Shown: positions 5,421 to 54,364 of the stretch, in pieces | How the letters are laid out: the number at the start of each line of letters is the position of its first letter | How positions within the stretch are numbered: the stretch's first letter is position 1 | Virus record (IMG/VR): IMGVR_UViG_2788500220_000014 | Coordinates: 37,405 to 101,404 of that record | From: a virus | Taxonomy: Duplodnaviria; Caudoviricetes | Length of the DNA: 64,000 bases | Direction: 5' to 3' (one strand) | Program-made: the position numbers and the translations under genes | The notes under the pieces: generated by a model | Databases searched by the model: none | Told to the model about the DNA's origin: nothing | Seen by the model: only the letters and a program-made list of their open reading frames with translations

Positions 5421-5762
5421 TTGAGACTTGCAATAATACTTTTAGCATTCCTCGCGTGCGCACCTGAACAGCAGGAACTTTTTGACCGATCGGTATTTGA
5501 AGATACGTGGTGGGAAGTTAATACACTGGGATACAATGCATGTTTTCTTGTACATCAATCTGGGGAAATATTTATATTTGAGCCAGATTATGGAACATAT
5601 TTTGCAGGTTCATGGGAGTATGAAGATCCCGGAATGTATCACGTTGAATCCGACTCACTAAATAATGCAGAAGTACTAGAAATTAAAAAGAAGAAAGACT
5701 GTTGGAAAATTTCAGGATACTCTATTTTAAAAATAGAAGCATGCGCATGTACATTACTATAA
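5421..5762 (+). CDS. putative lipoprotein
   Basis: Lipobox FLAC. Confidence 0.6.
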   Translation: MRLAIILLAFLACAPEQQELFDRSVFEDTWWEVNTLGYNACFLVHQSGEIFIFEPDYGTYFAGSWEYEDPGMYHVESDSLNNAEVLEIKKKKDCWKISGYSILKIEACACTLL

Positions 5763-5787
5763 AAAAAGGAGGGCGTTAGCCCTCCTT
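5760..5787 (-). terminator. intrinsic terminator
   Basis: AAGGAGGGC/GCCCTCCTT stem, T-run on minus strand, between convergent genes. Confidence 0.8.
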
Positions 5788-5813
5788 CGTATATCGAAAA
5801 CTAGTTAATAGTT

Positions 5814-6041
5814 TTACTTCACTGTTGCATCTGCATCATCAACATTAGTATTCTTGACAGCCGGTGCAATTTCAAACCCTGTAGTTTCTTGAGTCACTGC
5901 AGGTTTCGAAGGTATGACAGCCGGAGCCTTTGTTGAAGTTACAACATCAGGTTCTGAATTAGATGATTGAAGATAAAACAATCCAACAACTAATCCTAAA
6001 ACTGTTACTGCTGCTACAACATATGTAGTATACTTTTTCAT
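5814..6041 (-). CDS. small single-TM membrane protein
   Basis: MKKYTTY + TM helix; AAGGAG RBS. Confidence 0.7.
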   Translation of the reverse strand: MKKYTTYVVAAVTVLGLVVGLFYLQSSNSEPDVVTSTKAPAVIPSKPAVTQETTGFEIAPAVKNTNVDDADATVK

Positions 6042-6063
6042 GATTAAATCACTCCTTGTTTCG

Positions 6064-6097
6064 AAAAAAAGAGAAGCCCAGCATTCCAAGGCTTCTC
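6064..6097 (-). terminator. intrinsic terminator closing the large RNA
   Basis: GAGAAGCC...GGCTTCTC stem followed by T7. Confidence 0.75.
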
Positions 6098-6725
6098 GTT
6101 CTCATGACCGTCAAGCCTTTTGAGCCTGTCCCCCTCTTGGGGTTAGACGTGAACACACCGGTAAGTAACACCGTTCACAAGATTTCTCCCTGTTCTTGGC
6201 TCGTAAAAACCACGGAACAGCACGTCCTACTGTCATCAACATTCTGCGCTCAGTTGGGTAAGCTGTACACTTCCCCCCGCATTTGCGCGCCATGCTTCCA
6301 ATCCTTGGGAGAATGTCCACATAACCCCTTTCGGGACGATAGGTTCGTTGCCGACTCTACCAGAGAGACTTCTGCCAATGACAGTTAAATTCTAGAGGTT
6401 ATTAAGCCTCCTTCCCAAGACTTTTCGACTCCTTTTGGGAGTGTCTTTGGTTTGCCCTTATCCCGTTTCCACGATGAATTTACAAGTCCATGGATATTTT
6501 CAGCAGTATTTCCCTAGCGGAATAGGGACTCATGCATCCAACTACTAAACGACTTCGGAAGTTCCACCTTCCTTAACTCGTTCCCTCTCTTGGTGGGGCG
6601 GCATGCCGCAAGAACAACACCTTCCCCATTCGAGGTTTTCTCTATCATCTACTTTCGTAATTGCCCAGGAGCCAGTAATTCCACCTGAGTTTTTGGACCC
6701 GAGAACATGGGTCACATAAGTTTTC
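6098..6725 (-). ncRNA. large (~630 nt) ornate structured ncRNA candidate, family unassigned (ROOL/GOLLD size class)
   Basis: No credible ORF; many nested helices, GAAA tetraloops, 5'/3' long-range pairing, upstream promoter-like site and downstream terminator. Confidence 0.7.
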
Positions 6726-6754
6726 AAAGAACCTTCGTTTATTAACGTATGTTA

Positions 6755-6783
6755 AATATAACGACCCTCTATAGAGTGTATAA
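6755..6783 (-). promoter_or_regulatory. putative promoter of the ncRNA
   Basis: TTATAC-N17-TATATT on minus strand. Confidence 0.4.
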
Positions 6784-6789
6784 AACTAT

Positions 6790-7386
6790 TTAATTTAATT
6801 TTGCACCTACCCATAACCCTAAAGATGCCTGGTAAAGATGCTTCTGGAGCAATTGTTTTGGTATCACCCATTTAAGGGGTAACTCTTCCTTGGGCCTATC
6901 AATTATAGTATTATTTCTATAATCGTGATATGCTGTCATCTGTTGTTGCTTTATCCACCTAATTGTAGATGCATCGCTCCATGACCCACGAGATATAACT
7001 TGCAACATGTTATTATAAAGTAGCATCTCTATAGTAAACTGATTATCACTTAGGGTAATCGTTGTTTCAAGTAAATAATGACCGTTGTCATACGTACATT
7101 GCTTAGCATTTAAAGTATAGTCACAGCCCTCCCATATATATGATATTGTATCTCGGTTATAAACGTTAATTGGATTAACACCTTTAGCCAGTCGACTGTG
7201 CATGCTAGCTAAGCCGAATACTGAATTAACGTCAATATCTACATCAGCATCTTGAGACATGTCAATAACCTTAATAGGTGCTACATAAACTTCTGAAGAG
7301 CGAACATCGCTAACAACAATTGACATATCAACATCTTCTGCATGTGAAGATAATAAAGAGAAAGAGAGAAAGATAAGCGCTTTCAT
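6790..7386 (-). CDS. secreted hypothetical protein
   Basis: Signal peptide ending SHA; 198 aa. Confidence 0.7.
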   Translation of the reverse strand: MKALIFLSFSLLSSHAEDVDMSIVVSDVRSSEVYVAPIKVIDMSQDADVDIDVNSVFGLASMHSRLAKGVNPINVYNRDTISYIWEGCDYTLNAKQCTYDNGHYLLETTITLSDNQFTIEMLLYNNMLQVISRGSWSDASTIRWIKQQQMTAYHDYRNNTIIDRPKEELPLKWVIPKQLLQKHLYQASLGLWVGAKLN

Positions 7387-7429: not shown

Positions 7430-8143
7430 TCAATCTTCTATTGCATGTATACCTTTATTTCTTTGATAAGCCTGGACAGTTGTAGGAAATAAGTCTGCCG
7501 CAATTTCTAGACATGCCATGGCGACCTGTTGGATCTCCCACTGTGCACCTTCATGTATGCGTAAATCGATGAACTTTAATAGATTACCAAGGTTCACAGT
7601 GCCATAATATTGGGTGTACATATTTTGTGGTAATATCCCGCGTGCTTGCTCACGGCAAACACCCGCCTCGATCATTCTGTTAAATAAGTCAAGAGACATC
7701 TGATGGTGCAATCCGACCATTTCATCACAATCACTACCGCAGGAAAGGATTGGATTAATTAGCCCTTCGGTATTGGATGCTTGCCGGTTTGACTTATGCT
7801 GCGTCCTGAACTCTTTCGGTTCATAAAACTGAATATCGAAATCGGTATATCTCCTACTAATCTCGTTATAGCTCCATGTTCGATGCCTATGATGCTGGCT
7901 ACGAATAAATAAAGGTACTACAAATCGAAATGTTATTGAGCAGTGTTCCAATGTACTAGTATGCTTGTGCCGAATTAAATAGCTTATCAGCTTAATATCT
8001 CGTTCATCCATATGCTTCTTTTGTTTTCCAAAAGAGACCCTAGCACTATTAACTACAGTAAGATCAGAACCCATATGTTGAACATATTCTACTGCTCCCA
8101 CTCCATCATTGTATAGCCCTATAGATTTTGTATATTTCATCAT
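7430..8143 (-). CDS. thyX: FAD-dependent thymidylate synthase
   Basis: ARVSF, HTSTLEH, QHHRHRTWSYNEISRRY ThyX motif, EQARGILP, AQWEI. Confidence 0.96.
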   Translation of the reverse strand: MMKYTKSIGLYNDGVGAVEYVQHMGSDLTVVNSARVSFGKQKKHMDERDIKLISYLIRHKHTSTLEHCSITFRFVVPLFIRSQHHRHRTWSYNEISRRYTDFDIQFYEPKEFRTQHKSNRQASNTEGLINPILSCGSDCDEMVGLHHQMSLDLFNRMIEAGVCREQARGILPQNMYTQYYGTVNLGNLLKFIDLRIHEGAQWEIQQVAMACLEIAADLFPTTVQAYQRNKGIHAIED

Positions 8144-24809: not shown

Positions 24810-25166
24810 TTAATATCCCTCCGGGCGGGCCCATGCAATTATTTCGTCATCCGACATATCTTGTGCCATTACACTCGATGCCTTTGCTGCGGCTACAAAT
24901 TTCCTTGAGTCTCTTTTTGCAAGAGAACCTGGTGAGATCGAAATATCCATCTCAGCAAAGTCTCTAAACCCTAATTCATATGCCATATGATCCAGGTCAA
25001 GTATTCCGATATCCAATGCCTCAGAAAACTCGTACCAATTGGAATCCTTTGGGGGATAGCCATTCACCGGTGATGGTGGGCCGTGCGTACCAGTTCGATA
25101 CTCATTAACAATATGGGATACTTCTTCCTTGATGATCCGCTTAAGCTGTCTTTTGGTTATTCTCAT
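24810..25166 (-). CDS. leader-tagged protein
   Basis: MRITKRQLKRIIKEE. Confidence 0.8.
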   Translation of the reverse strand: MRITKRQLKRIIKEEVSHIVNEYRTGTHGPPSPVNGYPPKDSNWYEFSEALDIGILDLDHMAYELGFRDFAEMDISISPGSLAKRDSRKFVAAAKASSVMAQDMSDDEIIAWARPEGY

Positions 25167-52483: not shown

Positions 52484-54364
52484 CTATATGCCCTTAAGAG
52501 CTAATTCTTTAATCGTATTAACGGATTTTCCGGTTTCATGAAGAATACCCAGGCCTCCTGCAGCATTCCATGTGCTAATCGTACTAGCTTTATCATCAAT
52601 TAAAATATTTGAAATACCAGCCGTAACAGCATACTCGGATTTCATTTTTGCAGAACGAACTATTACCTCTGAAGGAACTGGGCTTAGCCACTTGGTAGTC
52701 CACTGCTTTTTCCCATCTGCAGCCGTTGGAGCATCAATTCCATTACGCATATTGATAGGTGCAGTAAGTAACTTAACATCAAATCCAGAATTATTAATAT
52801 ATGACCATAATGCTCCGATACCGTCGTCTAAGGGTAGAAGACTAGCAAAAAAAGCTCCAGGTGCAAAACTAATTGCCGCATACATCAATGTACGTACAAA
52901 GGGTAAGTTAAGATCTTTCTTTGTTCGAGGGCGCCAACGGGGTCCTGAAGTATCATTTATATTTCTTATCGCCCTTCGCATAGACTTAGAATTCTGAACC
53001 CAGTCGGCACCTACAGTACCATCTAAAATCTTGCTGCAAAGCTCAATAGCACCGGTTTCAAAATCAACCAACACACCATCCATATCACAATATATTGTTG
53101 ACTTGGGTGTTATATCAGGTTCCCTATTATTATTTTGCTGTTGTTCATGCTCAAGTTCTTCGTTTAAAATAGACCTGATTAGGGCACGAACTTCTCCTAC
53201 TAATGTGCTATATGCTTCAGCCTCTGCATCATTCATTGCCTTACCTATGGCCGGCCCCTTTATCCCCTGGGCCATAAGATCCTTAGGATTAACTGCTGGT
53301 GGTGCATCGGCAAACTTTAGAAAAGCCTGGATGATGGATTCCGAAGGTGCACCCATAACCCTTGAGTACTCCTTAACCGTCGTCAACTGAATATCGAATC
53401 GGTTGTAATCTTTCTTAAGGGACGGTGCTGACTCCTTTGATATAGTTCCAAACCCGAGTAAGAACCGAATTGCTTTTTGTTCATCATTCGAGTATGTCAT
53501 ATTCTTAAGAACTGTGGAAACGGCGTCCTTAGAATTGTAGCTAAGGATTGCTGCAATTTGTGCTATAGGGTCGCTCGTTGAAGCCGGCATAATTTTTATA
53601 TCTAATCCAGGAAAAATCTGTCTAAATAAGCCTAACTCTTTTGTTAAATGCAGAAAGTGATTTACATCCTTGGCGGATGATATCCCCTTTATAAACTCAT
53701 CCCTAATTCTTTCAGGTGAAACTTCACTCAATGTATTGTCATTAAGAATGGCCTGCTTAGTCTCTGGATCTAAATCGGATCCCATTCTGCCGGCGAATCT
53801 TACGGCACGCAGAATTCTTAGGGGATCCTCATCGAATCTCTCGGCCGGATCGCCAACTGCCTTAATGACCCCATTTTCAATATCGCTTATGCCACCGACA
53901 TAGTCAACCACCTCACGTGTATCCATATCATAGAAGAGTGCATTGATCGTAAGGTCTCTTCGATTGACATCATCCTCGATTGTCGTAAACTTCACAGAGT
54001 CCGGACGTCGGCCCTTGCCAATATCTTCTCTAAATGTTGCTATCTCATATTCGCCACCCGCGCGCGTCTTCACCCTTACAACACCAAATGATTCACCAGT
54101 TAAATCAAGTCGCAACTGGCCTTGGCTCTGTAGTATCTGGATAACCTTATCAGGGACGGCATCGGTTGCCAGGTCATAGTCCTTCGGTGTCTTACCAAGC
54201 AGCACATCACGTACGGCACCACCAACAACATATAATTGTTTTCCGGCACCCTTCATTCGTTTATGAATATCCTGCAAGTCAGCAGGTATTGGCAGATCCA
54301 TGGATTGTCTCACCGGTTCCTCCAGCGTCATTGCTTCTCTTATGTAAGCATATAATATATTCAT
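52484..54364 (-). CDS. cca: CCA tRNA nucleotidyltransferase fused to 5'(3')-nucleotidase-like HAD domain
   Basis: VGGAVRD..KDYDLAT, RRDLTINA, EDPLRILRAVRF, ERI; C-terminal YCDMDGVL..LIDD. Confidence 0.9.
   Translation of the reverse strand: MNILYAYIREAMTLEEPVRQSMDLPIPADLQDIHKRMKGAGKQLYVVGGAVRDVLLGKTPKDYDLATDAVPDKVIQILQSQGQLRLDLTGESFGVVRVKTRAGGEYEIATFREDIGKGRRPDSVKFTTIEDDVNRRDLTINALFYDMDTREVVDYVGGISDIENGVIKAVGDPAERFDEDPLRILRAVRFAGRMGSDLDPETKQAILNDNTLSEVSPERIRDEFIKGISSAKDVNHFLHLTKELGLFRQIFPGLDIKIMPASTSDPIAQIAAILSYNSKDAVSTVLKNMTYSNDEQKAIRFLLGFGTISKESAPSLKKDYNRFDIQLTTVKEYSRVMGAPSESIIQAFLKFADAPPAVNPKDLMAQGIKGPAIGKAMNDAEAEAYSTLVGEVRALIRSILNEELEHEQQQNNNREPDITPKSTIYCDMDGVLVDFETGAIELCSKILDGTVGADWVQNSKSMRRAIRNINDTSGPRWRPRTKKDLNLPFVRTLMYAAISFAPGAFFASLLPLDDGIGALWSYINNSGFDVKLLTAPINMRNGIDAPTAADGKKQWTTKWLSPVPSEVIVRSAKMKSEYAVTAGISNILIDDKASTISTWNAAGGLGILHETGKSVNTIKELALKGI

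Follow-up and report, generated by a model that had tools for sequence, protein, structure and literature searches.

A predicted large, pseudoknotted non-coding RNA with a boxA-like leader from large marine phages

Introduction

To our knowledge, natural RNAs as large and complex as the one considered here are very few once ribosomes, RNase P and introns are set aside. Processive anti-termination by NusB and S10 takes place at the boxA elements of phage lambda nut sites and of rRNA (rrn) operons, and the anti-termination complex of rRNA operons also aids co-transcriptional folding. Among giant phage RNAs, GOLLD (which we take to be Rfam family RF02032) was reportedly described by Weinberg et al. 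in 2009.

GOLLD and ROOL are phage RNAs encoded near tRNA islands that form RNA-only cages; both are homo-oligomeric, GOLLD being a 14-mer and ROOL a closed cage (PMC12286853). Cages assembled through kissing loops and GNRA–receptor contacts have been reported for the manA phage RNAs (10.64898/2026.07.01.735769).

The locus described here lies in a stretch of phage DNA of 64,000 nucleotides, the whole of which is referred to below as the window. Like GOLLD, its product would be a giant, ornate and pseudoknotted phage RNA of unknown function that is often encoded in or beside tRNA arrays, occurs in marine and lake samples and is more conserved in its 3′ than in its 5′ part. It differs from GOLLD in length (about 650–680 nt, compared with over 800 for GOLLD), in the absence of a nested tRNA and in the lack of any sequence or covariance-model similarity. 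With ROOL (RF03087; Weinberg et al. 2017, PMC5737381) it shares a size of about 600 nt, multiple pseudoknots, an occurrence in phages or prophages near tRNA islands, and the want of a known protein partner and of a known function. ROOL, however, is found in phages of rumen or gut Firmicutes, whereas the new RNA is found in large marine phages, does not match the ROOL model, carries boxA in its leader and incorporates its terminator hairpin into the fold. manA (RF01745) is likewise a structured RNA of marine phages, and provides a precedent for the role proposed below for the invariant loops, but it is shorter than 200 nt and resides in 5′ UTRs, and its model has no match in the window. The RNA thus resembles GOLLD and ROOL in size and setting but fails their membership test. 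Taken as a whole, the observations are best explained by a gene that stands on its own and encodes a heavily pseudoknotted RNA of about 680 nt, non-coding, belonging to an uncatalogued family and carried by a large marine phage; we put the probability of this explanation, together with the biogenesis inferred below, at roughly 0.6.

Experimental Section

Homologue searches: The region was compared by BLAST with 50,697 phage records, without a match. Since no homologue had come from this comparison of DNA, the 198-aa protein encoded next to the RNA was used as an anchor. Further members were sought with the invariant stretches of the first alignment as search patterns; one of these, GGGAGAAATCTTGTGAAC, gave chance matches only. 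Loci were examined with nhmmer and BLAST and with covariance model R1, which covers the core only (161 nt) and scores 181 bits on the core domain of the window (6229–6385).

Consensus fold: RNAalifold was applied to 13 and then to 20 sequences, and the consensus was revised by hand wherever covariation preferred other pairings. Alignment A5 and all fold statistics refer to 20 homologous sequences. The 5′ end of the RNA was inferred to lie about 7–10 nt past the −10 box, and the 3′ end within the T-run.

Results and Discussion

The locus and its source

The window is the final 64 kb of a 101-kb contig from a metagenome bin (4.9-Mb assembly of 33 contigs). The following features define the locus:

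6064–6745, minus strand: whole predicted RNA, about 680 nt, delimited by the nhmmer/BLAST homology block, alignment A5 and the fold statistics
6790–7386, minus strand: gene upstream of the RNA, encoding a 198-aa protein without a known function, which served as anchor for finding the first homologues of the RNA
7430–8143, minus strand: thyX (Pfam Thy1), 5′ of the 198-aa open reading frame (ORF)
5814–6041, minus strand: small ORF for a membrane protein downstream of the RNA; it has a ribosome-binding site of its own, lies past the terminator and is not part of the RNA

On the minus strand, the order is therefore thyX, the 198-aa ORF, about 700 bases without a credible gene, the small membrane ORF and a terminator. 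The G+C content is 45–52% between positions 6100 and 6700 and about 36–40% in the flanks.

The RNA is present as a single copy in its own assembly. It was not found in 60 relatives searched by DNA, nor in another 150 genomes from the same bacterial family as the bin when these were searched with the covariance model. Genes for a T4-type major capsid protein and portal protein are located on another contig of the same bin with a similar composition (C13), a tRNA array is located on a further one, also of similar composition (C16), and a contig of 176,782 bases is also recorded as carrying the 198-aa neighbour. The contig is probably part of a large T4-like phage that was binned with a bacterial genome; the phage itself is probably T4-like, and its host is not established. 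A Bacteroidota host was considered because one homologue of the RNA (L119) lies in a Flavobacteriales bin. The 16S rRNA of the bin's relatives (two genomes of the family) is not of the CFB type, as judged by what we take to be the CFB/Bacteroidota signature. A search for T9SS tails gave none for the bin, and none in the control genomes either.

Some further observations concern the contig and its bin. ARAGORN detected neither a tRNA nor a tmRNA in the window, and located a tmRNA gene with the tag ANNNDNFEYALAA on the contig that also carries the RNA (G000, C25:4159–4521, minus strand); if this contig is phage, the tmRNA is phage-borne. A 626-aa protein encoded in the window (52484–54364, minus strand) has an N-terminal half that matches tRNA nucleotidyltransferase (CCA-adding enzyme; PHROG 2244, E 1e-60) and a C-terminal part that matches a 5′–3′ deoxyribonucleotidase-like family; this fusion occurs in a phage with tRNA arrays. 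An identical stretch of at least 65 bases around a GTTCTTTAAAA site is present both in C25 (near position 95282) and in C16 (near position 25054), which may reflect two phage strain variants in the bin or an overlap of the contigs.

Homologues and conservation

At the three metagenome loci with the closest relatives of the 198-aa protein (47–59% identity), the RNA was found directly downstream. Its nucleotide identity amounts to 82–87% where the adjacent protein is only 47–59% identical. Neither nhmmer nor model R1 detected the RNA at 15 viral loci with 198-aa homologues of 33–43% identity, or at 77 metagenome loci with more distant ones, so the linkage between this gene and the RNA is confined to the closest clade.

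In all, about 22 RNA loci plus duplicates were obtained (nhmmer/BLAST and the core covariance model), which come from marine metagenomes, from large viral contigs of 15–316 kb and from one species genome. The latter (L119) is the one true match from a 20-mer scan of species genomes. Matches of Maribacter to a hairpin of the RNA were discarded as chance matches to identical copies of a mobile element: the chromosome of Maribacter sp. IgM3_T14_3 contains more than 20 identical copies (L105–L127) of a sequence with the 20-mer GGACAGGCTCAAAAGGCTTG, and was taken to hold a multicopy mobile element because the flanks are identical over at least 120 bases.

Conservation is higher in the 3′ half of the RNA than in the 5′ half, and several blocks of 11–14 nt do not vary at all among phages with proteins that are only about 50% identical. 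Conservation of the RNA far exceeds that of the neighbouring proteins.

The 198-aa protein itself has no match in Pfam or PHROG. More than 180 relatives occur in marine metagenomes; Cys88, Cys97, His103 and a C-terminal KEELPLKW...QASLGLW motif are invariant. The protein is widespread in marine phages, and its function is unknown.

Evidence for a structured RNA

Thermodynamic folding (z = −2.8 for the minus strand and −2.3 for the plus strand) says little on its own. The weight lies on the comparison of the 20 homologues, in which covariation, proposed in a preliminary description of this DNA as a check on a non-coding RNA, is strong. The curated fold comprises 36 helices with 186 base pairs in total; 96.2% of its cells are standard-paired, compared with 85% after shuffling. 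Double (compensatory) changes occur at 105 of the 186 pairs, and at only 26–37 when the 3′ partners are slid by 1–3 columns. The covariation score is 0.46 (0.08–0.12 in the controls), and none of 500 shuffles reached the observed value of any measure. Since G–U cells far outnumber A–C cells in the paired columns (540 compared with 37), the RNA is assigned to the minus strand.

The same alignment bears on the possibility that no RNA gene is present and that the interval is the remnant of a protein gene, the cis-regulatory leader of the small downstream ORF or an element acting at the level of DNA. Several overlapping ORFs of 60–110 codons can indeed be read in it, and a small membrane ORF does follow. 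Those open frames, however, differ in place and frame between members, so that the earlier description of the interval (6100–6700) as a gap without a gene holds and none of the overlapping ORFs has a conserved coding signature; the variable columns lack a three-base periodicity (70/80/75). The excess of G–U over A–C cells fits an RNA from the minus strand only, the terminator separates the RNA from the downstream ORF, and in distant members tRNAs follow instead of that ORF. Contradicted by the covariation data as well, this explanation can hardly be maintained.

At least 36 helices and three pseudoknots are demonstrably maintained by compensatory evolution. On comparative sequence evidence alone, without expression data, the gene-free stretch of about 680 bases is a stand-alone gene for a real structured non-coding RNA.

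Architecture of the RNA

From 5′ to 3′ the gene is composed as follows:

6755–6783, minus strand: predicted promoter found by a scan, with TTATAC (6778–6783), 17 nt and TATATT (6755–6760)
6721–6734, minus strand: boxA-like leader AGGUUCUUUGAAAA, with UCUUU invariant in 20 of 20 members
6696–6713, minus strand: P1 hairpin GACCC-AUGUUCUC-GGGUC (helix 1)
6638–6642, minus strand: GAGAA, which pairs with the P1 loop UUCUC (6701–6705) as pseudoknot PK1 (helix 2, 98% paired)
6496–6689, minus strand: 5′ domain (helices 3–13), including a variable GNRA hairpin at 6650–6659; most pairs covary
6468–6494, minus strand: hairpin H14 (helix 14, 100% paired, four covarying pairs)
6476–6482 and 6386–6392, minus strand: pseudoknot PK2, H14 loop UAAAUUC with GAAUUUA (helix 15, 100% paired, four covarying pairs)
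6229–6385, minus strand: conserved core domain of 157 nt, closed by helix 6229–6235/6379–6385
6190–6220, minus strand: hairpin H29, with an invariant base (CUGUUC/GAACAG) and a covarying tip
6101–6181, minus strand: 3′ domain (helices 30–35) with closing helix 6175–6181/6101–6107, hairpins H31, H34 and H35, and helix H33
6081–6086 and 6151–6156, minus strand: pseudoknot PK3, terminal-hairpin loop GAAUGC with GUGUUC (helix 32)
6064–6095, minus strand: terminal hairpin (6072–6095; helix 36) and T-run (6064–6070), a predicted intrinsic terminator

The promoter-like site had already been recognised. It is recovered by the scan and is rare in the window (two matches, 0.18 expected), and TTATACAC and TATAYTTA are conserved in the six closest relatives, with a variable spacer.

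The minus-strand segments listed in the preliminary description are complementary, as was confirmed in the sequence, and the homologues separate those that form helices from those that do not. The pairing 6229–6236/6378–6385 is retained with seven pairs, which are formed in 20 of 20 sequences and include four with compensatory changes. The 5′ hairpin at 6696–6713 is real, with an AU/GC swap among the 20 homologues. Both proposed GAAA hairpins stand: that at 6326–6335 is invariant in all 20 sequences, and all three pairs of that at 6650–6659 covary. By contrast, 6239–6245/6310–6316 is not the best pairing, as one of its positions is paired in only eight of 20 sequences; its 3′ strand pairs better with columns 479–481 and 490–492 of A5 (20 of 20, with a CG/UA swap). 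The helix 6146–6151/6221–6226 finds no support, since two of its positions are paired in two and 11 of the 20 sequences, respectively.

A pseudoknot closing the two ends of the RNA had also been proposed, in which the loop of P1 was to pair with GAGAAC at 6098–6103. The loop does engage in a pseudoknot, but that partner is not conserved; the real one is internal, at 6638–6642. In L138 and L141 the loop reads CUGUC and its partner GCCAG, which amounts to two double compensations. For PK3, UA/CG and CG/UA swaps were found in eight of the 20 sequences.

The core contains the invariant blocks GGCAGAAG-UCUCUG, CGUCCCGAAAGGGG (with the GAAA hairpin 6326–6335), GAAGUGUACAGCU (6259–6271) and CAGAAU. 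Helix 28, which presents a GUAC loop, remains unproven because it is invariant.

An intrinsic terminator had been placed at 6064–6097, and its elements are present in the sequence: an 8-bp, G+C-rich stem is followed by seven T. A simple terminator scan missed the hairpin, presumably because the loop exceeds the 8-nt limit of the scan. A T-run of at least six is present in nine of 20 members; in the other 11 it is weak or missing and the hairpin is retained. Because it is kept without a T-run, the terminal hairpin is regarded as a part of the fold that doubles as a terminator in some phages.

Comparison with catalogued RNAs

At gathering score, none of the 4227 covariance models of Rfam 15 matched anywhere in the window, and the 12 homologous loci searched in the same way gave tRNAs only. 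When the threshold was relaxed to E values of up to 10 for positions 5700–7100, nothing was found on the RNA except a chance-level, 44-nt match to PhotoRC-I on the plus strand (E 9.6). No Rfam model match was obtained for OLE, RNase P RNA, tmRNA, group I and II introns or HEARO. An RNase P-like P4 pairing noticed by eye was dropped: a GGG/CCC helix (577–579/597–599) covaries instead, and the RNase P models do not match. A full-text literature search found no description of this RNA.

Whether the RNA could still belong to GOLLD or ROOL as a highly divergent member, and not to a separate family, has to be judged against the same searches. The setting (phages and tRNA islands) is the same, the size is similar and the 3′ half is the more conserved one, as in GOLLD. 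Yet neither model gave a match at E values of up to 10 in the region of the window or in the divergent members L135 and L102, and at gathering score neither appeared at the 12 loci. Six invariant motifs are furthermore absent from the constructs and alignments of GOLLD, ROOL and OLE deposited with PMC12286853, a weak test because these files are incomplete and gapped. Divergent membership is considered very improbable. On the sequence comparisons available, the RNA belongs to an uncatalogued family of large marine phages. The alternatives offered in the preliminary description, a ROOL/GOLLD-like RNA or a new class of large RNA, are supported, and the tRNA-array setting of distant members matches that of GOLLD and ROOL.

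A large ribozyme, acting for example in the processing or modification of tRNA or another RNA, would give the invariant single-stranded blocks the part of an active site. The persistence of 11–14 nt blocks in phages whose proteins have drifted to about 50% identity would suit an enzyme, as would the multiple pseudoknots and GNRA loops, the embedding in tRNA arrays and the CCA-adding enzyme that is also encoded by the phage. On the other hand, neither RNase P, group I and II introns nor any other Rfam ribozyme model matched, no catalytic-core motif could be recognised, and those comparable giant RNAs of phages whose structures have been solved are cages and not enzymes (PMC12286853). We regard a ribozyme as doubtful.

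Genomic setting and boxA-like leader

No protein partner is conserved beside the RNA among the loci compared. In the closest clade the RNA is predicted to form its own transcription unit, with varying neighbour genes: L017 lacks thyX, and L101 lacks both thyX and the 198-aa gene. From these differences, the two genes appear to behave as insertable cassettes. In the window, thyX sits between a 170-aa gene and the 198-aa gene, a position in which it is missing in L017; in L101 the RNA directly follows the 170-aa gene. Distant members have the RNA embedded in tRNA arrays of the same strand. Same-strand tRNAs occur within 3.3 kb at 11 of 21 loci, and at five loci (L130, L131, L135, L144 and L146) a tRNA ends no more than 26 nt upstream on the same strand.

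Each member begins with G.TCTTT[GA]A[AC]A, of which UCUUU.A.A is invariant in 20 of 20 members and lies at a fixed distance before P1. Leader variants, among them GATCTTTAACAAC and GTTCTTTAACAAC, are close to the boxA consensus of the E. coli rrn operons, which we take to be GCUCUUUAACAA. In two complete genomes of the bin's family, GCTCTTTAAAA or GATCTTTAACA is found 244–290 nt upstream of 16S in all four rrn leaders; in one genome, the motif is located where its two rRNA operon copies start being alike. The 16S–23S spacer also shows a weak match to the leader region of L129 just after its tRNA. A tRNA-Ala was observed just upstream of the boxA in the 16S leader of two of the four operon copies (L147–L150; G006 and G030), which is an unusual placement.

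As in rrn leaders and spacers and at lambda nut sites, the motif marks the 5′ edge of a structured RNA that is long and untranslated. In the phage RNA it often comes directly after a tRNA, as it does in rrn spacers. From the comparison with rrn leaders and spacers, the order of tRNA, boxA and large structured RNA is inferred to copy that of rrn operons. Unlike the rrn and nut elements, the motif precedes a phage RNA and not rRNA, no boxB or boxC was identified, and there are no binding data. Being short, the motif is not rare (about 37 per Mb in the bin genome), so that its weight rests on position and invariance; no enrichment elsewhere in the phage contigs was found. Alternatively, it may belong to the fold as a strand that pairs with GGAGA at 6185–6189, a pairing beyond the reach of a covariation test because both sides are invariant. 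Its designation as a host-type boxA is indirect, because the contig sits in a metagenome bin and the host is unknown.

An rRNA-style leader in all members, and an order of elements that follows rrn spacers, could also mean that the RNA mimics an rRNA precursor, boxA included, and serves as a decoy or scaffold, to which ribosomes, ribosomal proteins or Nus factors of the host would bind and which would redirect translation or transcription. GOLLD has been reported to pull down ribosomes (PMC12286853). Mimicry at the level of sequence was rejected because no similarity to a 16S–23S operon of the bin's family was found, and the lack of a conserved protein partner beside the RNA also counts against a decoy, which we consider improbable.

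Proposed biogenesis and function

For the free-standing RNA gene favoured here, transcription would start at the conserved sigma-70-like promoter, or further upstream within a tRNA operon. The boxA leader would then recruit the NusB/S10 anti-termination machinery of the host, as in rRNA operons, and RNA polymerase would be enabled to cross 650 untranslated and highly structured nucleotides without premature termination. The 3′ end may be set by the terminator hairpin, itself locked into the fold; in arrays, tRNA-processing enzymes may cut the ends of the RNA instead. In the absence of expression or binding data, this route, from promoter or tRNA operon through boxA and NusB–S10 to ends made by the terminator or by tRNA enzymes, is held to be somewhat better supported than not.

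What the mature RNA does can be addressed only with more reserve. It may be an abundant architectural particle, RNA-only or RNA–protein and possibly a homo-oligomer, whose assembly contacts would be provided by the invariant GAAA tetraloop and by the loop with the self-complementary GUAC. During infection, it would take part in processes linked to tRNA or translation. Such an architectural role like that of GOLLD and ROOL, perhaps as a homo-oligomer, is a tentative suggestion by analogy, and the odds are against it; cage formation in particular is pure analogy, because no sequence or model similarity to either RNA exists. The broader proposal of an independent class of giant phage RNA, a self-assembling RNA-only particle or a new ribozyme that would be made with the boxA/Nus system of the host and act on tRNA or ribosome function while marine bacteria are being infected, is put forward as a speculation that we think unlikely to hold in full.

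Conclusion

GOLLD and ROOL were recently proved to be RNA-only cages, the purpose of which is open, and the new family offers an independent system in which the question of function can be pursued. Because an unrelated family shares their size and their tRNA-array setting and has an rRNA-style leader, giant RNAs are suggested to be a recurrent invention of phages. Its high conservation, its three defined pseudoknots and its compact core of 160 nt make the RNA a good target for cryo-EM, and one that could be deleted in a cultured marine T4-like phage. The link to boxA, finally, would provide a concrete and testable step in the making of giant phage RNAs.
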